A stretch of DNA of 64,000 nt from the NCBI RefSeq assembly GCF_053078305.1, contig NZ_CP166875.1; one strand, given 5' to 3'. Origin of the DNA: a plasmid. Below the pieces are notes generated by a model. It did not search any database. It was not told the DNA's origin and worked only from the letters and a program-made list of their open reading frames with translations. This document shows positions 1-44,375 of the stretch, in pieces (position 1 is the stretch's first letter; each line of letters starts with the position of its first letter). The position numbers and the translations under genes are program-made.

Positions 1-582
1 AGTCACAAATTTTACATTATCTTGATGTGTTTTTTTCTCCTGTTTATTAGTCTCTTTAGGTGACAGGAGTATGGTTAGAATGCTAAATGCACCCATTACA
101 ATAAATATTACATTCCAGTTATAATAATCAAGTATTAATGCTCCGGCCAGAGGTGCTATTAATGGTATTATCGCACTTGTTGATGATATGTCAGAAAGTG
201 CTCTTTTTAGCTTTAGTGGTGGAAAAGACTCTTTAGCAATGGCTTTTGATATTACAGGTCCGGCACCTGCACCTATTGCCTGTAGAATTCTACCCAAAAG
301 AAGCATATTTAAATCATTGGCCATAAAACATACAATACTGCCAATAAGAAATATAATTAAGCATATAGTCATTACGCGTACTTTTCCGAAATAATCACCT
401 ATGGTTCCTGATATCAGTTGACTAAATGCAAATACAATAAGAAATCCACTAATACTTAGTTGAATTAATGAGTAGTCAGCATGAAATGCTTTCTGTAGTT
501 CTGGTAACGCAGGCACAATCATGTCAGTTGATAATGCCGATAATGATGCAGCAAGAACAAGGTAAATATATAGTTTTGTCAT
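1..582 (-). CDS. MFS-type transporter, N-terminal part (gene continues beyond window start)
   Basis: Uninterrupted reverse-strand frame from ATG at 580-582 (AGGGA Shine-Dalgarno upstream) to position 1; translation MTKLYIYLVLAASLSALSTDMIVPALPELQ... is strongly hydrophobic with several predicted TM helices, typical of major-facilitator transporters. Not in ORF track because no stop in window. Confidence 0.5.
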   Translation of the reverse strand, partial: MTKLYIYLVLAASLSALSTDMIVPALPELQKAFHADYSLIQLSISGFLIVFAFSQLISGTIGDYFGKVRVMTICLIIFLIGSIVCFMANDLNMLLLGRILQAIGAGAGPVISKAIAKESFPPLKLKRALSDISSTSAIIPLIAPLAGALILDYYNWNVIFIVMGAFSILTILLSPKETNKQEKKTHQDNVKFVT

Positions 583-979
583 AATTAATCCCTGATAAAA
601 ATATTCTTATTTATCATATTTAAAATGCTTACGCCATCGGTATGTTTTATATTTTGAGATAGCACTACGATAGTGTTTGAGTAGAAACTAATGGGTACTC
701 CCAGATGCATATTCAGGTTGATGGAAGGGGGTAAAAATCCCCGTGCTGAACCTTCCATCCGGAGGGAGGAAACTTATCATTTTAACCTGTTCGTCCGTCG
801 GAATAGTCGAAATCGATCGCGCATCGCTTTTGTGAATAGTTATGCAAGTACCTGAAAACGATTCTGACGCATTTTTTCGGTTTAGCCTGGGGTTTCCTTG
901 TCTTTTTGCGTTTTTGCGTCAGAACGCGTATGAGAGCGTTTCAGCGGTACGTACAATTAAGGGATTATGGTAAATCCCC

Positions 980-1408
980 TTACTGTCTGCCCTCGTATCC
1001 ATCGAGATAAACCGCAGAAATGGTGTCTGCCATTAGTTTCATTTTTTTCGGCGACGGCATATCGCTGTTTGTGTATTTTCTGCCAGCAAAGGTTGTTGTG
1101 CTCCGGAGTGAGTGAAAAAATTTTTCTGAGTGGAATTCTTTTATACGTTGCTGTGCCGTTTCTGCTGATACTCCGGCTGCTTTGTCTTTCACCCCCATAT
1201 CCCGGAACTGCTGAAAGAACGGGAGCATCATACGTATGGTGTCTGCTTTCTGGGTGTAGAAGTTAGGATCAAATCCATCATCTGAAGCATAAACATAATG
1301 CCGGGTATGTCGTTCCAGGCTGGTCTTTGGTGTGCATCCTGTAAGAACGATTGTTGCTGTTATCAGAGGTATCAGAAGCAGCCTGGCAACGGCAGATCTC
1401 ATAAACAT
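980..1408 (-). CDS. putative lipoprotein
   Basis: 142-aa ORF with N-terminal signal peptide and lipobox LTGC (MFMRSAVARLLLIPLITATIVLTGC). Confidence 0.4.
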   Translation of the reverse strand: MFMRSAVARLLLIPLITATIVLTGCTPKTSLERHTRHYVYASDDGFDPNFYTQKADTIRMMLPFFQQFRDMGVKDKAAGVSAETAQQRIKEFHSEKFFHSLRSTTTFAGRKYTNSDMPSPKKMKLMADTISAVYLDGYEGRQ

Positions 1409-1522
1409 CTCCTTGCGTTTTTAATCTTGATACTCAGGGAGTTATATTTCCGAAGAGTATCTCTTATCATACGTCGGTTTACCCCAATGTGATTTGATGG
1501 TCAATGAGTCAGGAATAATCCC

Positions 1523-1801
1523 GTGAAAAAATGTGTGCCAGTCCTGCTTTTTAGTGTTCTTTCTGCTTCGGTTGCCAGTCATGCGGACAGCAATGTTTTT
1601 CAACAAAAGGCCGAGAAGACAAAAAATGGCATTGTTGCGGATGTTAATGCCAGACAGAAAATGTTCAGTAACAGACTGAAGATACAACTTCAGATCGATG
1701 AGTTGAGGGCATCTCTGGCTGGCACCAGAGATGCCCAAAAAAGAGAGGATTTGCGTAAAAAACTGGAGTCTCTGGAGCGGCAAAAGAAATCCTTACGCTG
1801 A
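1523..1801 (+). CDS. small secreted protein, function unknown
   Basis: 92-aa ORF with N-terminal signal peptide (MKKCVPVLLFSVLSASVASHA) followed by a charged, coiled-coil-like C-terminus. Confidence 0.3.
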   Translation: MKKCVPVLLFSVLSASVASHADSNVFQQKAEKTKNGIVADVNARQKMFSNRLKIQLQIDELRASLAGTRDAQKREDLRKKLESLERQKKSLR

Positions 1802-2083
1802 TGGGGGCGTATTTTCCCCGGTTTCTTCCATAACCTTTTTACCGTTCAGATATTTACGGGCGAGGCGAATGCGTCTTGCCTGGTATACCGCCGAGTAAGC
1901 CTGGGTGGGATTCACACCGTTACTGATTTCACTGACCACATGGCGCTGATCAGCCAGTGTCAGCGTGTAAACCTGTTTCTGGATGAGGTCACGGGCTTTG
2001 TCATGCTCATATCCGGCAGCAACAAGGGTGTCGAGAAGTCGTTTGTCTGTTTTGTTCAGTTTATGGCGGGGTGATTTGCTCAC
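1793..2083 (-). CDS. hypothetical protein
   Basis: 96-aa ORF, basic and hydrophilic; no recognisable motif. Confidence 0.25.
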   Translation of the reverse strand: MSKSPRHKLNKTDKRLLDTLVAAGYEHDKARDLIQKQVYTLTLADQRHVVSEISNGVNPTQAYSAVYQARRIRLARKYLNGKKVMEETGENTPPSA

Positions 2084-2214
2084 ATCGTTCTCCGTTTTTC
2101 ATGATCCAACAGTTTTATATCTCATCCTGATTTGCTCCGGTGTTCTGTTTCGACGTTCTCAATGCCTGCCTCCCCATAGTGTGATCCTTATTGCAAAAAT
2201 GAAAATCCATGCTC

Positions 2215-2277
2215 TTGACATGGACAATGGTGAGTAGTAGGTTTTTCTGTACATAAAACCAGTGGTTATATGTACAG
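2215..2277 (+). promoter_or_regulatory. SOS-regulated colicin promoter with tandem LexA boxes
   Basis: Perfect -35 TTGACA at 2215-2220; sequence CTGTACATAAAACCAGTGGTTATATGTACAG (2247-2277) matches the paired overlapping LexA operators (CTGT-N8-ACAG) typical of colicin promoters; AAGAGG Shine-Dalgarno before ATG 2322. Confidence 0.55.
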
Positions 2278-2321
2278 TGTGTTGTTTTTAATTTATTGTT
2301 TTAATTATCAAAGAGGAATTT

Positions 2322-3818
2322 ATGGCTAAAGAACTAAGTGGATATGGCCCAACTGCTGGTGAGTCTATGGGGGGAACAGGGGCGAATCTGAATCAGCAAG
2401 GTGGAAATAATAATAGTAATAGTGGGGTTCACTGGGGTGGTGGTTCAGGCTCTGGTAATGGAGGTGGTGAACATGGAAGTCAGACGGGGTGGGGATGGAG
2501 TAAAACCAATAATCCGGATGTGCCGCCTTATGTTGATGATAATGGGCAGGTGCGCATTACCATTACAAATGGTCTGGTAAAAACGCCTGTATATGGAGTT
2601 CCTGAGGCTGGCGGAAATAGTGATGTTCAGGGGGGCTATATTCCTGAAAATCCTAATGATGAAGTTGCTCGTAAGTGGGATAAAAACAACTTACCGCGAG
2701 AGATTGATGTGAGTATCGATGGTTTTAAATATCGTGTAACGCTTAATGATAATGGTAGAGCTATCGGTATTCTTCGAACAGGTGTCCGTCCTTACGTAGG
2801 GAGTGAAAAAGCTAAGGCGGGTATTATGGAAAAAATCAATCATAAAACACCTGAGGAGATATATGAGGCGTTAGGTTTTAATAAAGATGAATCTCAGCGG
2901 CAGGAAAAAGCAAAACAACAGGCTGAAGATGCGTGGGATCGTTTGCCTCCTAATGTGAGAAAATTTGATGTTGATGTTGAACAGTTCCACTATTTAGTGG
3001 TGCTTGATGATTATGGTAATGTTTTATCTGTAACTAGAACAGCTGTTCGTCCTTATGTAGGGAGTGAAAAAGCTAAGGCTGGTATTATGGATAAAGTCGA
3101 CCATAAGACCCCGGAAGAGATATACGAGGCATTAGGATTTAATAATGAAGAGCCTCAACGACAGAATCAAGCTAAAAAAGCTGCTTATGATGTATTTTAT
3201 TCTTTCAGTATGAACCGTGACCGGATTCAGAGTGATGTGCTAAATAAAGCAGCTGAACTTATATCTGATATGGGTAACAAGATCGGTGATTATCTTGGTG
3301 AATCTTATAAGTCGTTAGCAAGAGAAATTGCTGATGATATCAAAAATTTCCAGGGGAAAACCATCCGTAGCTACGATGATGCAATGGAGTCATTAAATAA
3401 AATTTTGTCTAATCCTAGTTTTAAAGTTAACAGAGCAGACCGTGATGCACTGGTGAACGCCTGGCGAAGTCGTGATGCTCAGGATATAGCAAATAAACTG
3501 GGGAATATCAGTAAGGCTTTCAAAGCTGCCGATGTAATTATGAAGATTGAGAAGGTCAAGGAGAAAAGCATCGAGGGATATGAAACTGGAAACTGGGGGC
3601 CGCTGATGTTGGAGGTTGAGTCTTGGGTTCTCAGTGGTATGGCCGCAAGCGTTGCCATGACATTGCTTAGTGCTATAATTGGATCATTCACACTACCGGC
3701 GTTAGCATTAACTGCAATAAATATTGCAGGTATTATGGGAATTAGTTACCTTGCATCATATATTGATGCAAGTGTGGCTGAAAAAATAAATAATAAATTG
3801 GTTCATTTTACTCATTGA
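2322..3818 (+). CDS. csa: pore-forming colicin, colicin S4-like
   Basis: 498 aa. Gly-rich N-terminal translocation domain (GGTGANLNQQGGNNNSNSGVHWGGGSGSGNGGGEHGS), internally duplicated central segment (TGVRPYVGSEKAKAGIM.K..HKTPEEIYEALGFN occurs twice), C-terminal A-type pore domain with hydrophobic hairpin (GYETGNWGPLMLEVESWVLSGMAASVAMTLLSAIIGSF...). Length and duplicated receptor domain fit colicin S4 as recalled; not verified by search. Confidence 0.85.
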   Translation: MAKELSGYGPTAGESMGGTGANLNQQGGNNNSNSGVHWGGGSGSGNGGGEHGSQTGWGWSKTNNPDVPPYVDDNGQVRITITNGLVKTPVYGVPEAGGNSDVQGGYIPENPNDEVARKWDKNNLPREIDVSIDGFKYRVTLNDNGRAIGILRTGVRPYVGSEKAKAGIMEKINHKTPEEIYEALGFNKDESQRQEKAKQQAEDAWDRLPPNVRKFDVDVEQFHYLVVLDDYGNVLSVTRTAVRPYVGSEKAKAGIMDKVDHKTPEEIYEALGFNNEEPQRQNQAKKAAYDVFYSFSMNRDRIQSDVLNKAAELISDMGNKIGDYLGESYKSLAREIADDIKNFQGKTIRSYDDAMESLNKILSNPSFKVNRADRDALVNAWRSRDAQDIANKLGNISKAFKAADVIMKIEKVKEKSIEGYETGNWGPLMLEVESWVLSGMAASVAMTLLSAIIGSFTLPALALTAINIAGIMGISYLASYIDASVAEKINNKLVHFTH

Positions 3819-3840
3819 TAGAAAAAGAGAGGTGATCATA

Positions 3841-4374
3841 TCACTTCTCTTTAAACGACCTATAGGAACCAATACAAAACCAAAAATACAAATATGAGAA
3901 TATAAAAATAATGGAATGTAAGCTAATGTAAAAAAACGATAGGAGGATTATATTTACAGACATCAGTTTTAGCATTTTTGCAGAACTGGTTAGCTCCGTA
4001 TCAGCAAATAAAAAAGCATATATTAAGATAGCATAAAAAAAAGTGAAAAAAATATTTATTTTCAGTAGTTGCCATGGAGATTTATCATTTTTTAATCTAA
4101 GATTTTTACATGTGTTTAAAAATAAAAGAATGGCAGTGAAAGGAGCTGTTTTTACATACAGACTCAATGTTTTGCTAAATACTGGGGTGTTTTGTGAGTA
4201 TATGGCAGGTAGGTCATTTGCTCTCAATGCTATATAGTTTAATATATTGGATGTTGGATTGTGGATATATATAATGATTATTGAGAACATTGGGATTAGT
4301 GAAATTATAAGGAAGTAAAACATCTTTGTTGCTATTTTATTTCCTTTGTCTGTTTGGTGGTGTTTATTTATCAT
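3841..4374 (-). CDS. csi: colicin immunity protein (A-type, polytopic membrane)
   Basis: 177-aa ORF convergent with and immediately downstream of the colicin gene; four hydrophobic segments; size typical of A-type pore-colicin immunity proteins; AT-rich. Confidence 0.7.
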   Translation of the reverse strand: MINKHHQTDKGNKIATKMFYFLIISLIPMFSIIIIYIHNPTSNILNYIALRANDLPAIYSQNTPVFSKTLSLYVKTAPFTAILLFLNTCKNLRLKNDKSPWQLLKINIFFTFFYAILIYAFLFADTELTSSAKMLKLMSVNIILLSFFYISLHSIIFIFSYLYFWFCIGSYRSFKEK

Positions 4375-4425
4375 CTGTTTACCTGTAAATTTATTATATT
4401 AAAGATTTTGATGAATGGCTATGGT

Positions 4426-4716
4426 TTATTTTCTCTTTAGAGAGTAATATATGAAACTTGGCAATCCTACTGGGATTGCCATTAATAAATAGAACAATGC
4501 AGATAACTTGCATAAGTACCAGGGCTCTTTTTTTAACTTTGTATTTTCTTTGATATATCTAGATATGGTTAATTTAGAGTATGGATATAGCAATACATAT
4601 ATTGACGATATAAAGATAAATAACAAAGGAGTGTTATCAGTGTCGTTAAATATTAAAATAAGAATCCATGGTATAAGTGATTCAGGTAAATTATGTAGGT
4701 AGTATTTTAAATGCAT
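4426..4716 (-). CDS. small polytopic membrane protein, possible second (E1/K-type) colicin immunity protein
   Basis: 96-aa ORF with about three hydrophobic segments, same orientation as the immunity gene, lying between it and the lysis gene; size matches E1/K-type immunity proteins. Confidence 0.35.
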   Translation of the reverse strand: MHLKYYLHNLPESLIPWILILIFNDTDNTPLLFIFISSIYVLLYPYSKLTISRYIKENTKLKKEPWYLCKLSALFYLLMAIPVGLPSFIYYSLKRK

Positions 4717-4745
4717 AAGTATTTTTACTTTTGTCGGAAAGGGAT

Positions 4746-4877
4746 ATGAAAATAATAATTTTTCTAATTAAAATATTATTCTTGTCAGGATGTCAAGCAA
4801 ACTATATTCGTGATGTACAATGAGGAACCGTTGCGTCATCTTCGTCTTCTGAACTGACGGGGATCGCGGTTCAGTAG
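4746..4877 (+). pseudogene. csl: colicin lysis lipoprotein gene interrupted by in-frame TGA
   Basis: ATG 4746 encodes [25 protein letters not shown] (lipobox LSGC), then TGA at 4821-4823, then in the same frame [18 protein letters not shown] and TAG at 4875-4877. The stop sits where colicin lysis proteins have the first Gly of the conserved ...[12 protein letters not shown]... motif. Confidence 0.6.
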
Positions 4878-5076
4878 AAAAGATCAAAGGATCTCTTGAG
4901 ATGGGGTCCCAAGCCGGAAACCTGGATTTTTCCGCTGGATTTTTCCGCGACCAGTAACGGCGTGGGGTGTCACATAAATGACCGATTGAGTGACTGTCAC
5001 TGAAACAACGATTTCTACATCAGATTTCGTCACATAACCCGTCACCTATTGGGGTCAGTTTGGATATAGAGAATTA

Positions 5077-5114
5077 GGGGGCTGGCGCTCAGTGGAACGA
5101 AAACTCACGTTAAG
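5077..5114. repeat. Tn3-family 38-bp terminal inverted repeat
   Basis: GGGGGCTGGCGCTCAGTGGAACGAAAACTCACGTTAAG, near-identical to the Tn3 terminal IR as recalled (about 36/38). Confidence 0.6.
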
Positions 5115-5468
5115 CAATGTTTTCTTCCTCCGATGCCTCTTTTTGCCCTTTAGTCACCAGTTCTGCCAGCGTGAAGGAATATGGCCGAGCATATTGATGT
5201 GTCCGTGGCAAAGTGGTGAGAGGCGTGCGATATCTTCATCATTCACGATTTCCCCCTGTGCCCTGAAATGGTCCAGGGCAGCCTGCATATAAATAGTGTT
5301 CCATAATACGACGGCGTTAGTCACCAGCCCCAGTGCGCCCAGTTGATCTTCTTGACCATCGGTATATCGCTTTCTTATCTCACCTTTCTGACCGTGACAG
5401 ATAGCTCTGGCAACGGCATGGCGACTTTCTCCCCGGTTAAGTTGGGTCAGGATGCGCCAGCGGTAACG
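5110..5468 (-). pseudogene. tnpA: Tn3-family transposase, 3'-terminal fragment (truncated and frameshifted)
   Basis: Reverse-strand translation gives ...RYRWRILTQLNRGESRHAVARAICHGQKGEIRKRYTDGQEDQLGALGLVTNAVVLWNTIYMQAALDH...LSPLCHGHINMLGH, then after a 1-nt frameshift ...YSFTLAELVTKG...EENIA-stop ending inside the IR. Only about 119 codons remain. Confidence 0.55.
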
Positions 5469-5492
5469 GTGATTTCATATTGAAGATAACTG

Positions 5493-5513
5493 TTGTACAA
5501 TTTAATTGTACAA
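5493..5513 (+). promoter_or_regulatory. palindromic operator / promoter upstream of phd-doc
   Basis: Inverted repeat TTGTACAAT..ATTGTACAA containing a TACAAT -10-like hexamer, about 20 bp upstream of the phd start. Confidence 0.4.
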
Positions 5514-5530
5514 CTCAAAGAGGAAGCACT

Positions 5531-5755
5531 ATGTTTACATGTAACTATAGCCATGCTCGCGATAACCTGGCCTCGTTGCTCGAGCTGGCGGTTGATGAAA
5601 ATCAGCCTGTTGAGATTCAGCGCCGTAAAGGTGGCGCGGCTGTACTGGTTGATAAAGACGCTTTTGAACGATACCGTAAAGCGGCTCTTGATGCTGAGTT
5701 TGCTGAGATCATGCAAAGTCATGGGACGGCCTATACGGAGCTTTCTAAGCGATGA
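5531..5755 (+). CDS. phd: Phd/YefM-family antitoxin
   Basis: ATG 5531 with AAAGAGGAAG Shine-Dalgarno; small acidic protein MFTCNYSHARDNLASLLELAVDENQPVEIQRRKGGAAVLV...; stop overlaps the doc start (ATGA at 5752-5755). Confidence 0.75.
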   Translation: MFTCNYSHARDNLASLLELAVDENQPVEIQRRKGGAAVLVDKDAFERYRKAALDAEFAEIMQSHGTAYTELSKR

Positions 5756-6138
5756 AATTCGTTAGTTCACAGGAAATGATTGAGTTTCATGACCGCTTGA
5801 TTTCGCGTGATGGTGGCGTGGCGGGTATGCCAGAACCCGGTCGCGCTGACGCGATCATTCATCGTGTTTTGAACATGTATCATTATGAAGGTGTGACAGA
5901 TATTATGGATCTGGCTGCCGTGTATTTAGTTGCTATTGCTCGTGGTCACATTTTCAACGATGCAAATAAGCGAACAGCCTTGTTTGTTGCACAGGTTTTT
6001 TTAAAACGGAATGGTATACATATTATTAGTTCGCGTATTTCGTTTGATGAAATGCAAATTATCGCTTTGAATGCTGCAACAGGAGAATATAACTGGAAGA
6101 TGGTTTCTGACCATCTTAAAGCCATTATTTTAAATTAG
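5752..6138 (+). CDS. doc: Doc (death-on-curing) toxin, Fic/Doc family
   Basis: 128 aa with the Fic/Doc motif HIFNDANKRTA; translationally coupled to phd. Confidence 0.85.
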   Translation: MKFVSSQEMIEFHDRLISRDGGVAGMPEPGRADAIIHRVLNMYHYEGVTDIMDLAAVYLVAIARGHIFNDANKRTALFVAQVFLKRNGIHIISSRISFDEMQIIALNAATGEYNWKMVSDHLKAIILN

Positions 6139-6709
6139 ATATAGATATCCAATCAGCAGCATTTTACAATCTACTGAGCAATGTAAAAATCATATATCTT
6201 TTTGCTATATAATTTCTGGCGTATGTGCTCAATTCAGACCTGACACTTTTCCGCTTCCTCGCCCACTCGCTCACTACGTTCGGTCGCTGGGGCTGCGGCG
6301 AGCGTTTGTAAGTTTTCTCCAATACTGACGACGTGCTTCCTAGGACAATGAGTCTCTCAGAATCGGTTTCTCGAAGTGACGAGCGATCAGAATGGAGACA
6401 AATAAATTCGGGAAACGAACCTTCACGGTAAGTTTTGTCACATTTATCATCCCTAAACATGAGAATTATCACCAAAACTAACCACCCAACAAACAGCAGC
6501 GCCGGGAGCAGCATTATAAAATCATGTACAGTGTTGCGTAACGACATGATAAGTTCTCAATATGCTCTTTACCAGATTATACCAGTGATACTTTAACGCA
6601 CCATCATTAATGCTAATGTATGCATACATTAGCATTAACATGCTGACAGCAACAAGCGGCGGATTTACGTCTGGATAACGTAAATGATTGCGGTATACAG
6701 GCCAGGCGG

Positions 6710-12971: not shown

Positions 12972-12979
12972 CGACATAT
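12972..12979. repeat. 8-bp target-site duplication (left) of IS66 element
   Basis: CGACATAT immediately left of the IS terminus; identical copy at 15513-15520. Confidence 0.7.
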
Positions 12980-13009
12980 GTAAGCGTCAACGGAGCACCG
13001 TATTGACGC

Positions 13010-14623
13010 TTATTTATTGGTGAGTACTACGTTCCATGGCAGGAGTTCATCAACTCGGTTGGAAGGCCATTCTGGCAGTACGCTCAGGATATGGCGCAGA
13101 TACGCTTCCGGATCGATACCGTTCAGACGGCAGGTGCCGATCAGCCCGTACAACAGTGCTCCACGCTCGCCGCCGTGATCGCTGCCAAAGAACATAAAGT
13201 TTTTCTTTCCGAGACAGACTGCACGAAGCGCTCTTTCCGCAGCATTATTATCCGCCTCCGCCAGACCGTCATCACTGTAATAACAGAGGGCATCCCACTG
13301 ATTCAGTACATAGCTGAACGCTTCGCCCAGTCTGGATTTTTTCGACAGCGTACCATTCTTCTCCACCATCCATTCATGCAGTGACGTCAGTAACACTTTG
13401 CTTCGCTGCTGCCTGACGGCAAGACGCTCTGACTCCGGTAATCCCCGTATTTCATCCTCGATGGCGTACAGTTCACTGATTCGCTTCAGGGCTTCTTCTG
13501 CCGTCGCACTTTTGCTGCTGATGTATACATCGTGGATTTTTCGCCGGGCATGGGCCCAGCACGCAACTTCTGTCAGTGCACCACCTTCACGTTCTGCACT
13601 GAACAGCCGATCGTAACCGCTGAACGCATCCGCCTGCAGGATACCCCGGAAGGGACGAAGGTGTTGTACCGGATGTTTTCCCTGCCTGTCTGGTGAGTAG
13701 GCGAACCAGACCGCCGGTGGCTCTGATGAGCCCGCATTCCGGTCATCCCGGACATACGTCCAGATGCGTCCTGTTTTTGCCTTTTTTCTGCCCGCTGCCA
13801 GCACTTTTACTGGTGTGTCGTCAGTGTGAACCTTGCGGGTGTTCATCACGTAACGGTACAGGGTATCATTCAGCAGAGTCATTAACTGACAACATGCGTC
13901 AACCCAGTTGGAGAGTAATGCCCGGCTCAGTTCGATGCCCTGGCGGGCAAAGATTTCACTCTGACGATACAGTGGCAGGTGTTCGCAGTATTTTCCCGTT
14001 AACACGCGGGCAAGTAATCCGGAGCCCGCGATGCCGCGCTCTATCGGGCGGGACGGCGCTGGCGCTTCAACTATACAGTCACATTTTGTACAGGCTTTTT
14101 TTACCCGAACAGTGCGGATCACTTTCAGGGCGCTACTCACCAGTTCCAGCTGCTCAGCACTGACTTCCCCCAGATAATCCAGCTCACTGCCACACTCCGG
14201 GCAACAACTTTCTTCAGGCTCCAGACGGTGTATTTCACGGGGAAGATGTGCCGGTAACGGACGACGATGACGTGACTGTCGCAACTGGCGGGGAACCTGC
14301 GGGTCATCCTCACGCCCACTGTAACGATCGCTTTCCTGTTCGCGTTGTTTCAGTTGGGCCTCAGCCTGTTCAACCTCACGCTGCAGTTTTTCAGAACGGG
14401 TACCGAACAACATCCGGCGCAGTTTTTCTATCTGGGCCCTCAGATGTTCTATTTCCCGCTCCTCCTCTTCGATCTTTTCCTCGGCACGTGCCAGTGCAGA
14501 GCGCAGGAAGGCCTCCGTCTCTTCAACCAGACTCAGTTGCTGATCTTTCTGACGGAGGGCTTCAGCCTGCTCAGAGAGCAGCCTTTCCAGCTCAGTGATA
14601 CGAATGAGGTATTTCCGACTCAT
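13010..14623 (-). CDS. tnpC: IS66-family transposase (TnpC)
   Basis: 537 aa with N-terminal coiled-coil / leucine zipper, Cys-rich zinc-finger (CCPECGSELDY...CTKCDC) and a long catalytic region typical of IS66 transposases. Confidence 0.9.
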   Translation of the reverse strand: MSRKYLIRITELERLLSEQAEALRQKDQQLSLVEETEAFLRSALARAEEKIEEEEREIEHLRAQIEKLRRMLFGTRSEKLQREVEQAEAQLKQREQESDRYSGREDDPQVPRQLRQSRHRRPLPAHLPREIHRLEPEESCCPECGSELDYLGEVSAEQLELVSSALKVIRTVRVKKACTKCDCIVEAPAPSRPIERGIAGSGLLARVLTGKYCEHLPLYRQSEIFARQGIELSRALLSNWVDACCQLMTLLNDTLYRYVMNTRKVHTDDTPVKVLAAGRKKAKTGRIWTYVRDDRNAGSSEPPAVWFAYSPDRQGKHPVQHLRPFRGILQADAFSGYDRLFSAEREGGALTEVACWAHARRKIHDVYISSKSATAEEALKRISELYAIEDEIRGLPESERLAVRQQRSKVLLTSLHEWMVEKNGTLSKKSRLGEAFSYVLNQWDALCYYSDDGLAEADNNAAERALRAVCLGKKNFMFFGSDHGGERGALLYGLIGTCRLNGIDPEAYLRHILSVLPEWPSNRVDELLPWNVVLTNK

Positions 14624-14653
14624 GACCGTTTTTATAATCCGGCCATGACATTT

Positions 14654-15004
14654 TTACAACATTGTCAGTGCATTAAGGCGGGATGTTTTGGGCTGACGCC
14701 AGTCCAGTTTATCGAGGAGCATTGCCAGCTGCGAGCGGGTAATGGATACCTTACCGTCACGCACCGCAGGCCAGATAAACTGGCCTTCCTCCAGACGTTT
14801 GGTGAACAGGCACAGACCATCAGCATCAGCCCACAGAATTTTAATCGTGTCACCCCGTCGGCCGCGAAAGATAAACAGGTGACCGGAGAAGGGGTTCTCA
14901 TCCAGCACATGTTGTACCTGTTCTCCCAGACCGTTGAAGGATTTACGCATATCAGTAACGCCGGCAACCAGCCAGATTCGAGTGCCTGATGGGAGCGAGA
15001 TCAT
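14654..15004 (-). CDS. tnpB: IS66 Orf2 (TnpB) accessory protein
   Basis: 116 aa, MISLPSGTRIWLVAGVTDMRKSFNGLGEQV..., the conserved IS66 Orf2. Confidence 0.85.
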   Translation of the reverse strand: MISLPSGTRIWLVAGVTDMRKSFNGLGEQVQHVLDENPFSGHLFIFRGRRGDTIKILWADADGLCLFTKRLEEGQFIWPAVRDGKVSITRSQLAMLLDKLDWRQPKTSRLNALTML

Positions 15005-15426
15005 CGTCCCCTCCCGGTCAGTTCACGGATCAACACCGTGAGCAGCTCTGGTGAAGGATTTTCCAGCGTCATGTTACCGTGGCGGAACTCAACTTTACAG
15101 GAACTGGCACTGACTGTGCTTTGTGAAGGAGTGGATAAAAGCGGAGTAAGAGCCGCCACAGGCTCTTTCTGCTCATCAGGCGTTATCTCAACAGGTAATA
15201 ATTCAACGCCAGCGCCAGAAGAGGTTGTTACCGGAAGACGCCGCGATATACGCCCTTCGTTCTGCCAGAGCCTGAGCCATTTGAACAGGAGGTTATCATT
15301 GATATCGTGTTCCCGGGCAATACGGGCAACAGAGGCTCCTGGTTGTGAAGCCAGTTTAACCATTTGAAGTTTAAACTCATTTGAAAATGATCTGCGGGGT
15401 TCTGAGGATAATATTTTCTGTTCCAT
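15001..15426 (-). CDS. tnpA: IS66 Orf1 (TnpA) HTH protein
   Basis: 141 aa with HTH (FSNEFKLQMVKLASQPGASVARIAREHDINDNLLFKWLR); stop overlaps the Orf2 start. Confidence 0.8.
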   Translation of the reverse strand: MEQKILSSEPRRSFSNEFKLQMVKLASQPGASVARIAREHDINDNLLFKWLRLWQNEGRISRRLPVTTSSGAGVELLPVEITPDEQKEPVAALTPLLSTPSQSTVSASSCKVEFRHGNMTLENPSPELLTVLIRELTGRGR

Positions 15427-15512
15427 AACAGGTGTCCACTAGTTGAAAAGGTGGGCACCTACGTTACCAATACTGGCTTAATGGCTACATACGGCGGTCA
15501 GTTTACGCTTAC

Positions 15513-36614: not shown

Positions 36615-36901
36615 AACGCGAAGGCTTCTGGCGGGATGTAACACCACCGCTCAACATTTATGGTGTCCCCCTGCCGTTTACCATGATTTACCTGCTGTTG
36701 TTTCCGTATCCGTCAAAAACGACATTCTGGGTGTGCAGCGGCATTCTGCTGTTTTTTATGCTCCTGGGATATTCCGGCTGGACAGTCCGCACCCTCTGTA
36801 TACGTCTGTACAGCCTGCTTCAGGGTAAGCAGGCATCGGGACGTCCCTGGTGGTACCGACACCGCACAGAATTACCCCGTGAATGGCACGGACCAGAATA
36901 G
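36611..36901 (+). CDS. small integral-membrane transfer protein (TraK position)
   Basis: 96 aa with two hydrophobic segments; start overlaps the traJ stop. Confidence 0.4.
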   Translation: MKREGFWRDVTPPLNIYGVPLPFTMIYLLLFPYPSKTTFWVCSGILLFFMLLGYSGWTVRTLCIRLYSLLQGKQASGRPWWYRHRTELPREWHGPE

Positions 36902-36964
36902 CCCTCTTTTGTCCATCATCCCGGCGTATCACAACGCCCTCATATTTAATCCCCGGAGAACGAC

Positions 36965-39900
36965 ATGAAGTCCAGATATCGTACCTGGCTTGCTGTCCCG
37001 CCTGAGGAGACAGAAGCCGTAAAAAATGCAGTCCCCCCGTTAAATGGCCGCAAAGCTGTCGCATGGGATCCAGAAAAAAAACTCTGGTATGCCCGGGCGG
37101 GTACCGAACTTTCACTGCTGGAGCGCTGGTTACCCCGGCCGCAGGAACTGTCGATGGATGCCGGCGATCCGGTCACCGAATTTGCTCAGGTCCTGGAAAA
37201 CGCCGGACTGGTTATTCAGGGATTGCCACAGATGGATGGCGCCATACACAGAGTCGCCACCCGGGATGACAAAAAAGGGGCCAAAAGTGGCGCATACAAG
37301 GCCTATCTTGATGGGCGCCCCGCCGGCTGGTACCGCGACTACCGGAGCGCCGATGACAGTCCCACAAACTGGGTATTTTCCGGCGGAGAACAACACGATC
37401 CTCTGGCCAGACTGCATCTGCGGGCATTCGCTCAGCAACAGCGCGATGATAACGCACGTAAACTGCAGCAACAGTACAACAAACAGGCCCGGTATGCCCG
37501 CTCCTATATTAACCAGTTACCACAGGCAACAGAGCATGAATACCTGACCCGAAAAGGGATCCTTGCCGCACCGGGCGTCCGTCTGAATAACAAGAATGAA
37601 CTCGTCATCCCTTTCAGTAACAGCCGGGGAGAAATACGTTCATACCAGCGTATTCCTGTCACCGGCGGGAAGGATGCCCGCATTCTGAAAGACTCAGAGA
37701 AAACCGGTAACTGGTTCACCTTCGGAACCCCGGAAAATGGCCGTCCCCTGTTATTTGCGGAAGGTTACGCAACTGCAGCCTCCCTGCACGAAGCCACCGG
37801 CCTTCCGGTTCTGATGACAGTTGATGCCGGCAATATGATTGACGTGGCAGAAAATGCCCGCCAAATCTGGACTGACAGCCCCTTTGTCTTCTGTGCCGAC
37901 AACGACCATCAACGGAAAATTAACAAAGGTGTTTCAAGTGCCCAAAAAGCTGCCGCAAGCACGCATGGCGAAGTCATTATTCCGGCCTTTACGGAGGCGG
38001 AAAAAGCACAGGGACTGACCGATTTCAATGACCTGGACGCCAGCAGGGGACGAGACGCCTTTCAGCGAGCCATGAACGCACAGTTAGAATATATCGGTAT
38101 CCCCACGCCCAACAATGACACTACTGACCGCCGTGAAGCTATCGTGATCGGCAACCTGATATTCACACCGGTAAAAGATGAGAAGCCACAAGTGTACCCT
38201 GAAAACAGACAGAGCACAGCCCCTGAACCGGCAGTGTCGGAACAGAATCATCCTTATGACATCCCTGCAGAAGAGACAGACAATCAGGCATATGAAGATG
38301 ACTATGCAGCATATGCATCCCTGCAGTCGGTAACTGCAGGGACAGCCTCCCCGAATGAACCGCAGGTGAATGCTGTTTCTGCCATTGACAGCAACGCAAA
38401 GAATACCTCTGCCGCCACCACTGACGACCGAAATGTATTAGCACAAGAACCCAATGCTGACGCCACAGTTACGACCACGGCTCACGACACCGGCACAGCA
38501 GAAACAGATTCACCTTCTGAACCTGCAGAGATTCAGCCAGTGCAGCAGGCCAGTCCTGAACCATCGGCTAAAGATAAACCACAGGAGAACGTAGTGTCTG
38601 CTACTGATAATGACGCAGAGAACACCTCTTCCGCCACCACTGCCCTCCGGAGTTACGACACACCGGAAACATCCGTCTCCGACGCAACCGGGACACAGCA
38701 CACCGCCACAACGCAACCTGAAGAACCACAGCAGGTCTCCATGGGCAGCGCTGACGACTGGAGCGCATTTGCGGAAGACCTCAATGCTGATGCTCCGGGG
38801 AATGCCACTGTTCACAGCACCGACAACGCGGAGACAAAGACACTTTCTGAACCTGCCGGGATGCAGCCTGTTCAACAGGCAACCCCTGAACCAACGGAAG
38901 AAAATAAACCTCAGGAAGAGGGCGTTATGTCTGCCACTGATACAGGTGAAGAGAGTGCCGCTGCCGCTATCGATGACGACCTGGACACAGTTGCGGAAGA
39001 CCTCAATGCTGATGTTACTGTGATGACCACAGCTCACCACACCGATACAGCAGAAACAGCCTCACCTTCTGAACCTGCAGAAATTCAGCCCGTACAGCAG
39101 GCAACCCCTGAACCAACGGCAGAAGATAAACCGAAGGAAGAGCGTCCAGTGTCTGCCACTGAGACCAGCACAGCGAATGAAACAGCCCGCCCTGAAACAG
39201 CATCGCTTTTCAGCCGCCTGCGCCGTTTTCTGACCGGTGGAAAATCACGTACCGCCGAACCTCCCGTTATTCAGGAGAACAAGCTTACGGAGGCCGAAAC
39301 TGCGACAGAGGCCGCAGCACCACCGTCACCACCTGAAACCAGCCCGGAAGACACATCGTCAGCAGAACCGGACACGATTATCTTTGCGCCCCGCCGGCCC
39401 AACAGTCCGCAGCGGCACAACCTGGACGAGATTATTAAAAATCTTACATACGATGAGTTACCCGACAATACTGCGCTCTGCCGCGTCGACGGCGAACCGG
39501 CATTCCTGGATAAACTCAACCGTCTGGAAATGGTGGATGGTGCCAGCACTGATGACAAAAAGGTCCTGGCTGCCCTTGCTGTGGCCACCAACTTCTATGG
39601 CGGCGTTATCGAGCTGACCGGCAGTGATGCCTTTAAACAAAAAGCCATGCAGCTGATTGTCGAATATGACATCAAGGTTCGCATGAAACTCCCGGTCCAG
39701 AGGGCTGCGCTGGAAAAACTCCGCCAGGAGAAAGGGATGGCGCATGATGCCATCGTCACCCACAGACCCACGCCGGAACTCAACCGCCTGTCACCGGAAG
39801 AGACAACAATGGCACAACCGGCCCCCCCTGTGTCACCGAAAGCAGAAACAGAGCAAACTGCAGGCAGTACGGCTGAAACACCGCATCCGGAAGCGCCGGT

Positions 39901-40981
39901 CACGGCAAAAGCTGAAGCCCCCCGGGCCGGCACACCGGAACAACCAGCCGCCCCGTCATCGTCAGCAGGAAACGTCGCTGTCAGTGCACAGCCACAGCAA
40001 CCCGACACACCGGAGGAAGAGCCCCCCGGCAAACTCAGACCCGGTGAAAGTGTGACTGCCGTCCTGACAAACTACGGAGAAAAAGAGTATGCGCCCGGAA
40101 AAGGGCGCTGCTTTTTTGTGGAGCTCACCAACCGCAGTGGCAAACGGGAATACTGGGGAAACGGCCTGGAAGAACTGGTCAAAAACCACCAGAAAGGCAA
40201 CCCCGTCACACTGACGCTGCAGGCGAGAGAAACATTCCGGCTGTCCGGTGAAACACGGGATCGTATCCGTAATATCTGGGCCATGACTCCTGTCAGTAAC
40301 GGCATTACCGTCGATAATGACCATCCTCATGCTGGTCAGCATATCCTGGATTTTCCGATGGCAACATTCAGCCAGGTGATGTTACAGATGCAACAACACT
40401 GGCCACAGATAATGCAGGAAGTTCGCTCCCCCAAAAATCCTCCCAATAATCTGTACATTGGTGAAGACAGGCAACCTGCATCAGCACCTCAGGATCAATC
40501 AATGCGACTCCCCCTCGCTGGTAATGCCCCCAATGAACTGATACCAGCCATCGCCTCTGCCGATAAGGACAATCGTCAGTTGAATCTTCTGCTGGTCCAC
40601 AGCGCAGATGATCATCTGCAGGGCGTGGTCCGCCTGAACGGCACCCTTTACCCGGCACTGGCCACCCCGTCAGCTGACAACCGTCAGCTGGTCATCAATG
40701 CCCTGACGGATAACGGTCTGCAGTTTGCCGGTTACGGTGAAGCTGTTAACCATGATGAGAATAATCATCAGCGTCCGTCCCCACAAATAATGCAGTTTCA
40801 CCTGAAGCAACAGGACTCCCCGTTGTTTGCCGCCATCCACAAACCGGAAGAGCAACCGGACAAGCTTTTCCGCTCTCTGGGTTTTGAGCAGACCTGGAAA
40901 GAGTGGTCTGACAGCCAAAAGGCGGAGGACAGGCAGGAAAAAACTCTGCAACAGGCACAATCCCACAGCCCCGGCCGATGA
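36965..40981 (+). CDS. sog: conjugative DNA primase, Sog-like (TOPRIM domain plus long repetitive acidic linker)
   Basis: 1338 aa; N-terminal TOPRIM signature (LLFAEGYATAASLHE...VDAGNM...FCADNDH...GLTDFNDL); central Pro/Glu/Thr-rich region with about 80-bp imperfect tandem repeats encoding SPSEPAEIQPVQQA.PEP....KP. Confidence 0.8.
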   Translation: MKSRYRTWLAVPPEETEAVKNAVPPLNGRKAVAWDPEKKLWYARAGTELSLLERWLPRPQELSMDAGDPVTEFAQVLENAGLVIQGLPQMDGAIHRVATRDDKKGAKSGAYKAYLDGRPAGWYRDYRSADDSPTNWVFSGGEQHDPLARLHLRAFAQQQRDDNARKLQQQYNKQARYARSYINQLPQATEHEYLTRKGILAAPGVRLNNKNELVIPFSNSRGEIRSYQRIPVTGGKDARILKDSEKTGNWFTFGTPENGRPLLFAEGYATAASLHEATGLPVLMTVDAGNMIDVAENARQIWTDSPFVFCADNDHQRKINKGVSSAQKAAASTHGEVIIPAFTEAEKAQGLTDFNDLDASRGRDAFQRAMNAQLEYIGIPTPNNDTTDRREAIVIGNLIFTPVKDEKPQVYPENRQSTAPEPAVSEQNHPYDIPAEETDNQAYEDDYAAYASLQSVTAGTASPNEPQVNAVSAIDSNAKNTSAATTDDRNVLAQEPNADATVTTTAHDTGTAETDSPSEPAEIQPVQQASPEPSAKDKPQENVVSATDNDAENTSSATTALRSYDTPETSVSDATGTQHTATTQPEEPQQVSMGSADDWSAFAEDLNADAPGNATVHSTDNAETKTLSEPAGMQPVQQATPEPTEENKPQEEGVMSATDTGEESAAAAIDDDLDTVAEDLNADVTVMTTAHHTDTAETASPSEPAEIQPVQQATPEPTAEDKPKEERPVSATETSTANETARPETASLFSRLRRFLTGGKSRTAEPPVIQENKLTEAETATEAAAPPSPPETSPEDTSSAEPDTIIFAPRRPNSPQRHNLDEIIKNLTYDELPDNTALCRVDGEPAFLDKLNRLEMVDGASTDDKKVLAALAVATNFYGGVIELTGSDAFKQKAMQLIVEYDIKVRMKLPVQRAALEKLRQEKGMAHDAIVTHRPTPELNRLSPEETTMAQPAPPVSPKAETEQTAGSTAETPHPEAPVTAKAEAPRAGTPEQPAAPSSSAGNVAVSAQPQQPDTPEEEPPGKLRPGESVTAVLTNYGEKEYAPGKGRCFFVELTNRSGKREYWGNGLEELVKNHQKGNPVTLTLQARETFRLSGETRDRIRNIWAMTPVSNGITVDNDHPHAGQHILDFPMATFSQVMLQMQQHWPQIMQEVRSPKNPPNNLYIGEDRQPASAPQDQSMRLPLAGNAPNELIPAIASADKDNRQLNLLLVHSADDHLQGVVRLNGTLYPALATPSADNRQLVINALTDNGLQFAGYGEAVNHDENNHQRPSPQIMQFHLKQQDSPLFAAIHKPEEQPDKLFRSLGFEQTWKEWSDSQKAEDRQEKTLQQAQSHSPGR

Positions 40982-40997
40982 GCCGGTAAGGACGACC

Positions 40998-41348
40998 ATG
41001 AACATGAAAAAAACGCTGCTGGTCATACTGACCGGCATCACCCTGGCATCACCGGTGGCAGGTGCCGCCACCTGCCGGGCGGGGGCCGCTGCCGAAGCCG
41101 GCAGCAAAGCAGCCTGGGAGCGGGCGCGCACAGCCAGCCAGGCATGGTCACAGCGAGAAAACGACGTCGCCTCCTCCCTGCAGTCCTGCCTGTCCCGCAT
41201 TAAGGACGTCAGCATCACTCTTCCGCAATTCCCCAGTCTGGACAAAATCCTTCGCGATCTGGAAAACCAGGTCTGTGATGCCGTCGTGGATCGGGTGAAT
41301 GAACATCTGCCGGGGAATATCGACCCCTGGAAAGACTATAACCTCTGA
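40998..41348 (+). CDS. secreted transfer protein (TraL position)
   Basis: Start at ATG 40998 (AAGGA Shine-Dalgarno); signal peptide MNMKKTLLVILTGITLASPVAGAA; the ORF-track N-terminus overlaps the sog 3' end. Confidence 0.4.
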   Translation: MNMKKTLLVILTGITLASPVAGAATCRAGAAAEAGSKAAWERARTASQAWSQRENDVASSLQSCLSRIKDVSITLPQFPSLDKILRDLENQVCDAVVDRVNEHLPGNIDPWKDYNL

Positions 41349-41359
41349 ACAGGAGCCCC

Positions 41360-42055
41360 ATGAGCGAAGCACACCCCACATCCCCTGTCTCTCCGGAAAC
41401 AGATAACAGCGGAGATATTTATAAACAAACGCTCAGTACCATTGCACAGTCAGAACAACGGGCCGCACTGGTTCCCGGACTTGTCAGGGCCTTGCTGTGT
41501 AGCAGCGCAGCTCTCGTCATCAGTCTGACCGGCAATATCATACAGTACTGGCATAACAGCAACGTAACGCGTGAATACTTTGCCACCGACAATGGCCGGC
41601 TGGTCCGCCTGGCCCCCACCAGTCAGCCAGCCTGGAGTCAGAGCGACGTCATGACGTTTGGCAGCATGACGCTGAGCGAAGCTTTTAATCTGGATTTTGT
41701 CCACTACAGGAAACAAATCACGACACTGGCCCCCCGCTTTTCCGAAGCCGGTTTTGCCGGCTATGTGAATGCTCTTCAGGCCTCCAACATTCTGGACACC
41801 ATTAAAAAGGAGAAATTTAACCTCACGGCCACCATCGGGGCCGGCACGCTGGTGAATCAGGGCCAGATGGAAAACGGCATCTGGTTCTGGAAATTCCAGT
41901 ATCCGGTCAGGATGCGTCTGGTCGGTCAGAGCAGCACCCGCCCCGAGCAGGCCTTCACCTTTGAAATCACTGTCCGGCGCGTTGACCCACGAATCAAACC
42001 CGGCGGCATGGAAATCAGCCAGATGGTTTCCCGTAACGCCGCATCAGGAACCTGA
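41360..42055 (+). CDS. membrane-anchored transfer protein (TraM position; IcmL/DotI-like)
   Basis: 231 aa with one N-terminal TM helix. Confidence 0.4.
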   Translation: MSEAHPTSPVSPETDNSGDIYKQTLSTIAQSEQRAALVPGLVRALLCSSAALVISLTGNIIQYWHNSNVTREYFATDNGRLVRLAPTSQPAWSQSDVMTFGSMTLSEAFNLDFVHYRKQITTLAPRFSEAGFAGYVNALQASNILDTIKKEKFNLTATIGAGTLVNQGQMENGIWFWKFQYPVRMRLVGQSSTRPEQAFTFEITVRRVDPRIKPGGMEISQMVSRNAASGT

Positions 42056-42065
42056 GACTCATATC

Positions 42066-43040
42066 ATGCAAATACATCATCTTCTTGGCGCACTGCTTAT
42101 TGTGTGCGGCACTGTCACGGCTGCAGATAACCCGAGCTGGCAGAACGCACGAACCCCACAGGCTGGCGGAAAGACAGGACAGGCTCCCGGGAACGCCCCC
42201 GCAGGCGGCCCCCCGCCTGCCACACAACTCACAGGCCCCCTGCCGCCACCTGCCTCTCCCCTTGTTCAGGAAGCCGCATCACTGGATTCCCCCCTGAATG
42301 CAGGTGAAATTCGGGAACTGCGGGGACGAATGGCCGATAACGAACGGGCCATCAGCGCACCTGTCACCAGTGTGGTGCCCCGTATCAGCTCCCTCACAGT
42401 AAATCTGTCACCCGGGGCCAGTCTGCCGCTTGTCCGAACCGCACTGCATAACGTCAGCGTGGTAACGTTCACGGACATCAACGGCTCCCCGTGGCCTCAG
42501 TCGGATCCGCCTTATAACGCGGCACCCGGTCACTTTGATGTGCAGTTCAACGGCAATATGGTCTCCGTCACTCCCCTGCGCGCCTGGGCTGCAGGGAATG
42601 TAACGGTCTACCTCAAAGGACTGTCTGTACCGGTCATTCTGAATATCACCAGTGGTGAAACCGACACCAATACCCTGAGTCAGGAGATCGACAGCCGTCT
42701 GGATCTGCGCATTCCCCGTCAGGGACCTGTCAGTCCTGTGGTAGCCGTACCATCAGAGAAGATTGCCCTGCATGATGCCACCCTGCAGGCCTTTCTGGAC
42801 GGTGTTCCTCCCGATGATCCCACCGTGCGTCGGCTGAAATTCTCCGGAAATGTTCCGGACACCACCATCTGGCAGCACGGCGATGATCTGCTCGTGCGAT
42901 CGCGGGCCATGCTGCGGGATGAATTTGAACAGACGCTGGCATCTGCTGACGGTACGCGTCTGTGGAAACTGCCGGTGACTCCCTTACTCACCTTCTCCGT
43001 GAATGGTCAGTCCATTCACGTCACCCCTGAACTGGAGTAA
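42066..43040 (+). CDS. secreted transfer protein (TraN position)
   Basis: Start at ATG 42066; signal peptide MQIHHLLGALLIVCGTVTAA, then a Pro/Gly-rich linker. Confidence 0.45.
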   Translation: MQIHHLLGALLIVCGTVTAADNPSWQNARTPQAGGKTGQAPGNAPAGGPPPATQLTGPLPPPASPLVQEAASLDSPLNAGEIRELRGRMADNERAISAPVTSVVPRISSLTVNLSPGASLPLVRTALHNVSVVTFTDINGSPWPQSDPPYNAAPGHFDVQFNGNMVSVTPLRAWAAGNVTVYLKGLSVPVILNITSGETDTNTLSQEIDSRLDLRIPRQGPVSPVVAVPSEKIALHDATLQAFLDGVPPDDPTVRRLKFSGNVPDTTIWQHGDDLLVRSRAMLRDEFEQTLASADGTRLWKLPVTPLLTFSVNGQSIHVTPELE

Positions 43041-43043
43041 ATC

Positions 43044-44375
43044 ATGAGCGCAGAACAGGACACAGCCGCAAAGTCCGGCAAAAAACTGTCAGCCCTGCTG
43101 GTTCTCGGGGGCGTGATTATCATCGGGGGCGGATACCTGCTGCTCACCTGGCTTTCCCCCGAAAACAGCGCATCGCTCTCGTCAGTCAATATCAACAGCA
43201 CGACAACAGGCAGCGGGCGGACCGTGGTGGAGTCACAGCACTACCGGGATTTACTGCGTGCTGACAATGAGCGCGGGGCCGCAGAAGCATTACGTAATAA
43301 CCAGACGTTCATCGCCAGTCTGCCCAGGGGACTGGATACTGATCACGGAAAGAATCAAAGTAGGGATACTCAGCCTGCTGACCAGGCCGAGGGTTCTGGT
43401 CAACCATCAACGCCCCCTCAGGCAGATCAAACAGCCCGGGAAAAACAGCGGGAAGCGTTACAAAAACTGCTTGCCCGCATCAACACACAGCATCCTGACG
43501 CCCGCCCCCCGGTAGTGGCGGCTGCAATGTGGGGTACCACTGGTGCTCCCGGGATAAGCTCACACGCCTCACCACCCGGTACCGGCACATCACCACAACC
43601 ACGTCTGCAGGAGGCCAGTCTGGCAACCCCGGCAGCTCGTACAGGGATACAGCTGATACCGGCACTGACCCGCGTACCTGCCTTCATTGATACGGAAGTG
43701 GACTCTGACAATGCTGTCTCCCGCGTGGTGGCCTCCGTACCTGCCGGCCCATGGGCCGGGGCAGTCCTCTACAGCCAGGACGCCAGACTCGCCGGCAAGG
43801 GAATGGATATCCACTTTGACCGGATGATGTGGCGGGGCATGTTTCTGAAAGTCAATGCATATGCCCTGAATGAACATACCGGCATGTCATCCGTGGCCAG
43901 CGACGTGAACCACCGCTGGTTTAAGCATATCGTTCTGCCGTCTGTGCTCGGTGGGGTGGGCAGTGTCGGAAGTCTTTACAAAGACGCCAACACACAGGTC
44001 ATTCAGGGAAACTACGGCAGCATTACCGGCAGGGTGGGAATGCCTGATGGCGAGGCGCTGGCTGGCGTCATTGCAGGCGGCATGGCCGAACGGGGCAGTC
44101 AGTTGCTGACCCGCCAGGCGGAGAGCGAACCTTACCGGCAGGTGACAGTGTCACGCGGAGAGGTTGTCTCCATTCTGTTTGTTGAGCCGGTCATGAGCAA
44201 CGATATCAGTCCCCCCTCCTCCGGCACTGCCCCTTCTGTGCCACCGCCCTCCGGACGCCCGCTCACCCAGGAAGAAGCAGAGCGTCAGGCGTCTGACAGG
44301 ATCCAGGCAGCTGTCATGCGTAAACAGAACGAAATGCGGCAACGTTACGGAATACAACAGGAAAGTCATCCATGA
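43044..44375 (+). CDS. traO: VirB10/DotG-like transfer protein (TraO position)
   Basis: 443 aa; N-terminal TM anchor, Pro/Gln-rich periplasmic linker, Gly-rich C-terminal domain; name by position. Confidence 0.45.
   Translation: MSAEQDTAAKSGKKLSALLVLGGVIIIGGGYLLLTWLSPENSASLSSVNINSTTTGSGRTVVESQHYRDLLRADNERGAAEALRNNQTFIASLPRGLDTDHGKNQSRDTQPADQAEGSGQPSTPPQADQTAREKQREALQKLLARINTQHPDARPPVVAAAMWGTTGAPGISSHASPPGTGTSPQPRLQEASLATPAARTGIQLIPALTRVPAFIDTEVDSDNAVSRVVASVPAGPWAGAVLYSQDARLAGKGMDIHFDRMMWRGMFLKVNAYALNEHTGMSSVASDVNHRWFKHIVLPSVLGGVGSVGSLYKDANTQVIQGNYGSITGRVGMPDGEALAGVIAGGMAERGSQLLTRQAESEPYRQVTVSRGEVVSILFVEPVMSNDISPPSSGTAPSVPPPSGRPLTQEEAERQASDRIQAAVMRKQNEMRQRYGIQQESHP

Follow-up and report, generated by a model that had tools for sequence, protein, structure and literature searches.

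The lysis gene that closes the colicin operon in the window (the window being the whole 64,000-nucleotide stretch of plasmid DNA analysed here, from contig NZ_CP166875.1) is very probably a loss-of-function pseudogene of a colicin-K-type lysis, or bacteriocin release, lipoprotein. The premature TGA that interrupts it is a derived, inherited stop codon of the kind that makes a gene a pseudogene. In the scheme that we favour, a colicin module of approximately 4 kb (exc2, SOS promoter, colicin, immunity, lysis gene and 27 nt of replication origin) would have come from a small ColE1-type plasmid and would have been captured by large conjugative plasmids, and one lineage of this module would have gained the change of GGA to TGA at codon 26 as well as T9K and P31S. 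Upon SOS induction the operon would still yield an S4-family pore-forming colicin and the opposite-strand immunity genes would go on protecting it; the lysis ORF would be translated no further than residue 25, leaving at most a 10-residue mature lipopeptide as against the near-invariant 28. Because the mature peptide would have 10 residues and not 28, self-lysis and lysis-protein-dependent colicin release would be lost or strongly reduced, a loss of release function that we infer from the sequence of the allele.

The lysis gene has the following features in the window:

4746..4877, plus strand: colicin-K-type lysis gene (ckl-like), a pseudogene by frame, alignment, Pfam match and RefSeq pseudogene call
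4736-4744, plus strand: ribosome binding site of the lysis gene, GGAAAGGGA, read from the sequence
4746-4823, plus strand: truncated lysis ORF, 25 codons and the stop
4770..4772, plus strand: codon 9, AAA (Lys) as against ACA (Thr), changed base 4771, in the signal-peptide core
4821..4823, plus strand: premature opal stop TGA, mutated base 4821, GGA (Gly26) in all intact alleles
4836..4838, plus strand: codon 31, TCA (Ser) as against CCA (Pro), changed base 4836, 3' of the TGA stop

The frame opens with ATG at 4746, reaches an in-frame TGA at 4821-4823 (codon 26) and runs on to a TAG at 4875-4877. The preliminary description had reported a TGA in frame at codon 26 of this gene and a C-terminal lysis sequence that continues in the same frame beyond it. 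Frame and translation confirm the stop, its coordinates and its codon number, and the frame past the TGA is indeed open to the TAG; the peptide given at that time is to be corrected in that it carried two Gly after the stop where there is one, the TGA replacing the first G of the GG pair. When codon 26 is repaired to Gly, the 43-residue product matches the Pfam family Lysis_col (PF02402) over residues 5-43 with E = 2.4e-22. A scan of the four operon proteins with NCBIfam HMMs gave no match, and the RefSeq names of these proteins appear to have their source in rules other than these HMMs.

Alignment against seven relatives attributes the TGA at 4821-4823 to a single G to T change at 4821. Codon 26 is GGA in every intact allele aligned, whether of colicin K type (on 7-11-kb plasmids), of colicin 10 type (ctl) or from a sister large plasmid, and comparison with intact colicin lysis genes thus bears out the earlier statement that GGA became TGA by one base change. 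The nearest intact allele (CP062882) is 97.5% identical over 201 nt, and relative to it the lysis lineage of the window carries T9K, G26-to-stop and P31S, that is, three non-synonymous and no synonymous changes, a 3:0 count that is too small to have statistical weight alone. T9K puts a charge into the signal-peptide core, 7 positions before the lipobox Cys, and P31S is a change in the mature peptide. What had been described as a single nonsense change is accurate for the stop, which one G to T substitution creates, but that substitution is not the sole lesion, T9K and P31S being specific to the lineage as well.

The gene most resembles that of the colicin K lysis protein Ckl (WP_077521118.1, of pVR50C and other pColK-type plasmids of ~7 kb), which also lies after cki and before a ColE1-type origin. 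The two share 96-97.5% nucleotide identity over 201 nt, the same residue at 40 of the 43 codons and the same lipobox. Unlike Ckl, the window gene has T9K, the stop at G26 and P31S, is located on a large conjugative and not a small mobilisable plasmid, and follows an S4-family colicin and a Cui-type immunity gene, whereas Ckl follows cka.

Homologues of the lysis family numbered 172 at E <= 0.001, and conservation was analysed on 120 listed cluster representatives, all of which (120/120) carry PF02402. A lipobox is recognisable in 106 of the 120 listed representatives, and the mature peptide is exactly 28 residues long in 91 of these 106. Among the 91 listed representatives with a 28-residue mature peptide, Gly is found at the codon-26 position in 90 and Pro at the codon-31 position in 89. 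None of the 106 is charged at the site of Lys9 in the window lineage, 7 residues ahead of the lipobox Cys. The window ORF stops after 10 mature residues and falls short of the conserved mature length of ~28. When intact alleles of ckl type are compared with ctl, their mature regions differ by 7 synonymous changes and 1 non-synonymous change, and intact lysis genes are therefore under purifying selection. T9K, the stop at G26 and P31S all strike near-invariant features, and this pattern, in which the counts are small, fits a relaxed constraint on the window lineage.

Part of the gene's signal apparatus is nevertheless preserved. The lipobox LSGC is retained at residues 13-16 despite the Lys 7 residues before its Cys, the start codon and ribosome binding site are retained as well, and cleavage between LSG and C would release a 10-residue mature peptide from the 25-residue precursor. 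The earlier account of a truncation to a 25-residue lipopeptide is therefore right in its count, but these 25 residues are the precursor and the mature form has only 10. The retained start, ribosome binding site and lipobox would suit a reading in which the truncated product is active: it would be lipid-modified and cleaved, and the signal peptide and 10-residue lipopeptide would bring about an attenuated, phospholipase-A-dependent leakiness with some release of colicin and less killing of the host. Engineered pCloDF13 release proteins with few mature residues, in work by Luirink and colleagues (J Bacteriol, 1989), were reportedly still lipid-modified, and upon full induction the short proteins are said to have remained lethal and to have caused phospholipase-dependent quasi-lysis. 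Because these truncations reportedly kept activity even in very short derivatives (lethality and quasi-lysis), some residual activity of the 25-residue precursor is conceivable. The pCloDF13 constructs resemble the window allele in that a stop codon interrupts the mature region of a release lipoprotein, but they had wild-type signal peptides and were over-expressed, whereas the window allele would leave only 10 mature residues and carries a Lys in the core of its signal peptide. Release of cloacin is said to have required about 20 mature residues in the same work, that is, twice what the window allele would supply, and since Lys9 lies in the core of the signal peptide, at a site where a charge is found in 0/106 listed representatives, export and lipid modification of the truncated product are doubtful. 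We consider an active truncated product improbable.

Inactivation of lysis genes of this type is not confined to the window lineage's stop codon. In pSTEC2018_166-a (CP075633) an IS91-family element is inserted in the stop-bearing lysis remnant near window position 4850; because the insertion lies downstream of the 25-codon ORF, it is uninformative on the activity of the truncated product. Further broken ckl alleles occur in the protein collection, two with frameshifted tails (P0011, P0077) and three cut just after Gly26 (P0115, P0118, P0119), from which it follows that inactivation of the lysis gene is recurrent. Three broken ckl proteins diverge or end directly after Gly26, the same spot as the window TGA, and this may be a recurrent breakpoint or a coincidence.

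Of the stop codons in E. coli, UGA is the leakiest, and traces of a full-length protein with Trp26 are possible. Programmed or tolerated read-through would place Trp at codon 26 and give some full-length protein, the stop serving as an attenuator of expression that suits a conjugative plasmid, and both this leakiness and the open downstream frame to the original TAG speak for it. However, Trp26 is unlikely to be neutral where Gly26 is present in 90/91 listed representatives, and neither P31S, at a residue conserved in 89/91, nor the IS91 element in the tail of one relative would be expected if the tail were needed. RNA folding of 4815-4905 gives nothing out of the ordinary (z = -1.4), and the hairpins there also occur in intact alleles; in this fold no recoding signal (stimulatory RNA structure or SECIS) was found, and a tRNA search of the 64-kb window found no tRNA gene and hence no suppressor. 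Because T9K and P31S are two further non-conservative changes, decay is favoured over a tuned read-through, to which we assign a very low probability. The idea that the UGA encodes selenocysteine is so improbable as to be negligible, given that no stable, specific hairpin follows the UGA, that the position is Gly in 90/91 listed relatives and that GGA alleles share the sequence downstream.

The pseudogene reading is strengthened by the recurrence of the allele. An identical haplotype (AAA/TGA/TCA at codons 9, 26 and 31) was found in 8 public E. coli plasmids of 108-152 kb from the USA, Norway, Switzerland and China:

CP027641 and CP027674: USA
CP045714: Norway
CP075633: Switzerland
CP061837: sheep, China
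CP129349 and CP129254: human-derived STEC isolates, from China in the case of CP129254
pN51a: cerebrospinal fluid (CSF) isolate

In RefSeq the same allele is annotated by PGAP as "colicin release lysis protein, pseudogene, internal stop". Metagenome contigs were scanned with a pattern that accepts either base at the variable sites, and this yielded 23 matches, of which 22 are ACA/GGA/CCA in small-plasmid contexts and one, in a gut contig (L036), is AAA/TGA/TCA and is linked to an identical colicin, cui and phd/doc. Neither intermediate haplotype (K9 with GGA, or TGA with P31) occurs among the 23 metagenome matches. That the true base at 4821 is G, and the TGA an error of sequencing or assembly, is hardly credible and we regard it as ruled out: the same base and the two linked substitutions are present in 8 independent plasmids and 1 metagenome contig, the change is a substitution and not a homopolymer indel, and it recurs in plasmids from four countries.

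Upstream of the lysis gene the operon consists of the following:

2215..2277, plus strand: colicin promoter region, with the -35 element TTGACA at 2215-2220 and a double LexA (SOS) operator, CTGTACATAAAACCAGTGGTTATATGTACAG, at 2247-2277
2322..3818, plus strand: colicin structural gene, 498 aa, colicin S4 family, intact frame
3841..4374, minus strand: cognate pore-former immunity gene, 177 aa, RefSeq name Cui
4426..4716, minus strand: cki, orphan colicin K immunity gene, 96 aa, intact

We take 2247-2277 to be a LexA operator on the CTG-N10-CAG consensus and on the known form of colicin operators. The lysis ORF is the last gene of the operon and lies beyond the opposite-strand immunity genes (3841-4716), in the position of a lysis gene in an SOS operon. 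Toxin and immunity are kept, as had been stated before: colicin, cui, cki, promoter and LexA operator are all intact in the window. The toxin matches the colicin S4 structure (PDB 3few) over residues 1-495 with E = 1e-295, and over the coding region its gene does not differ from the NZ_CP045714.1 copy (WP_001040753.1). Nucleotide identity to csa is ~96% and ends near 3643 (~codon 440), the last ~58 codons being different, and the Cui immunity protein has only 28.7% identity to the colicin S4 immunity protein Csi. On these comparisons the toxin of the operon is an S4-family colicin with a different immunity module, and not colicin S4 itself. The colicin C-terminus and immunity gene that differ from csa and Csi look like a swap of immunity specificity by recombination. 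Copies of the colicin and immunity genes (2322-4374) at an identity of at least 95% were found in only 8 PLSDB plasmids. The orphan cki would protect against K-type colicins, for example from the small plasmid that is co-resident in FHI_NMBU_11.

One-nucleotide indels in runs of G4, G6 and A8 (window positions 2434, 2629 and 4045) break colicin or cui frames in CP061837, CP129254 and CP075668. In CP061837 and CP129254, which are relatives with the TGA, it is the colicin frame that is broken by such indels. These homopolymer indels are either further decay or sequencing errors and are not counted as firm evidence of decay; for CP075668 an error is favoured, because a broken cui beside an intact colicin would be suicidal.

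The operon belongs to a segment with recognisable small-plasmid boundaries:

980..1402, minus strand: exc2 (entry-exclusion lipoprotein of the Exc2 family), left part of the ColE1-type-derived segment, mapped from the annotation of NZ_CP045714.1
4876..4902, plus strand: 27-nt stub of a ColE1-type replication-origin region, right end of the captured segment, small-Col homology ending at 4902
5078..5465, minus strand: Tn3-family-like inverted repeat (5078-5109) and remnant of a Tn3-family transposase (5110-5465)
5531..6138, plus strand: phd/doc toxin-antitoxin pair, always adjoining the module

Homology to pColK-like plasmids begins at ~950 (in the small plasmids L005 and L008), and small pColK-type plasmids match the window at ~950-2468 and at 4408-4902. 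These two blocks of homology identify the module as a fragment of a small Col plasmid, the centre of which, comprising the colicin body and immunity gene, has been exchanged so that cki was left as an orphan. Positions 5078-5109 resemble a Tn3 inverted repeat, and the Tn3-like end and transposase remnant probably mark the event that truncated the origin of the Col plasmid or captured the fragment.

The backbone segment is also present in the sister plasmids CP075653 (112 kb) and CP075668 (36 kb), whose colicin genes are almost the same as that of the window. In both, however, the region from ~4417 to 4893 is occupied by a different cki-lysis cassette in which the lysis gene is intact, with 43 codons, and from this difference we conclude that the cassette has been exchanged by recombination. 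The partners in this exchange were probably small Col plasmids. In STEC17-183 the co-resident 7.7-kb plasmid and the cassette of the large plasmid are each 91.6% identical to the window segment, a value that comes from comparing each with the window. Small Col plasmids are also found beside the TGA allele: FHI_NMBU_11 and STEC435, two of the four RefSeq hosts of this lineage, have a Col plasmid of 7,769 bp each, and the annotation of the one in FHI_NMBU_11 includes an intact Ckl (WP_077521118.1), cki and a colicin of 490 aa.

Positions 1-6344 of the window are 99.6-99.97% identical to the IncF plasmids named above, and the identity ends in a sharp junction at 6344. Beyond this point the backbone is IncI-complex-like, with repA at ~8.2-9.9 kb, a type IVB pil operon, pilV with a shufflon and an integrase at ~27.5-30.7 kb, and a DotA/TraY-type transfer region, which at 39.5-64 kb is 99.9% identical to NZ_CP038793. 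As the module is thus present on at least two conjugative backbones, the TGA allele has persisted through plasmid reshuffling. An IS66-family element (IS682-like) at ~12979-15512 of the window is inserted elsewhere in pEc1-50748, the closest relative of the backbone, and the ~8-9 bp by which its flanks overlap are what a target-site duplication should leave. One of the IncF plasmids, pFHI_NMBU_11_02 (NZ_CP045714.1), is a multi-bacteriocin plasmid: its positions 36806-44451 also code for colicin M, the colicin M immunity protein and the microcin V system (cvaABC/cvi).

If the lysis gene is a pseudogene, its loss may have been tolerated or even favoured on a low-copy conjugative plasmid, the killing of the host being costly. 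Any release of colicin would then need a source of lysis in trans, either a small Col plasmid in the same cell or an SOS-inducible prophage, and we assume that the hosts of the TGA allele, which are often STEC, carry such prophages. The preliminary description, which foresaw inefficient release or reliance on read-through, is borne out in its genotype but did not consider these two helpers. The S4 family, to which the toxin of the window belongs, is of group A. A more specific proposal, which we put forward only tentatively and hold to be unlikely, is that the stop was a selected step, in which a group A module, once transferred from a small plasmid of high copy number to a conjugative one of low copy number, gave up self-lysis for a borrowed lysis, provided by the co-resident Ckl in FHI_NMBU_11 and STEC435 or by an SOS-induced prophage in STEC hosts. 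In a rarer variant of the same proposal, a leaky UGA would set a very low dose of lysis protein. If selection of this kind did act, the operon would be a natural intermediate toward colicin plasmids of the group B style, which lack a lysis gene; an origin of such plasmids through an intermediate of this sort is one scenario that has been raised (PMC7374059).

Like the window, the group B colicin operons (Ia, Ib, B, M) have toxin and immunity on a large conjugative plasmid without a functional lysis gene. They differ from it in that the window keeps a recognisable lysis remnant, and in that prophage-dependent release is known for ColIb: without a lysis gene of its own, colicin Ib leaves the cell through prophage lysis (PMC7374059), a precedent for release by lysis in trans. 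Truncation or loss of the lysis gene has also been reported as the usual first step in the degeneration of Col operons (bioRxiv 10.1101/2021.05.15.444200), and the order of decay put forward in that survey, with the lysis gene first, the colicin next and immunity kept, agrees with the present case, the colicin frame being broken as well in the relatives CP061837 and CP129254 by indels that may be sequencing errors. The survey dealt with nuclease colicins that are mostly chromosomal, whereas the window has a pore-former on a plasmid. The loss of a lysis gene as found here is accordingly already known, the allele being flagged in RefSeq and the pattern having been described for colicin operons, and it involves no new mechanism.

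For annotation and typing, the operon is to be scored positive for colicin and immunity and negative for lysis. The window allele is a convenient natural allele for tests of helper-dependent colicin release, and it illustrates, in a modest way, the decay or adaptation of colicin operons that have moved to conjugative plasmids.
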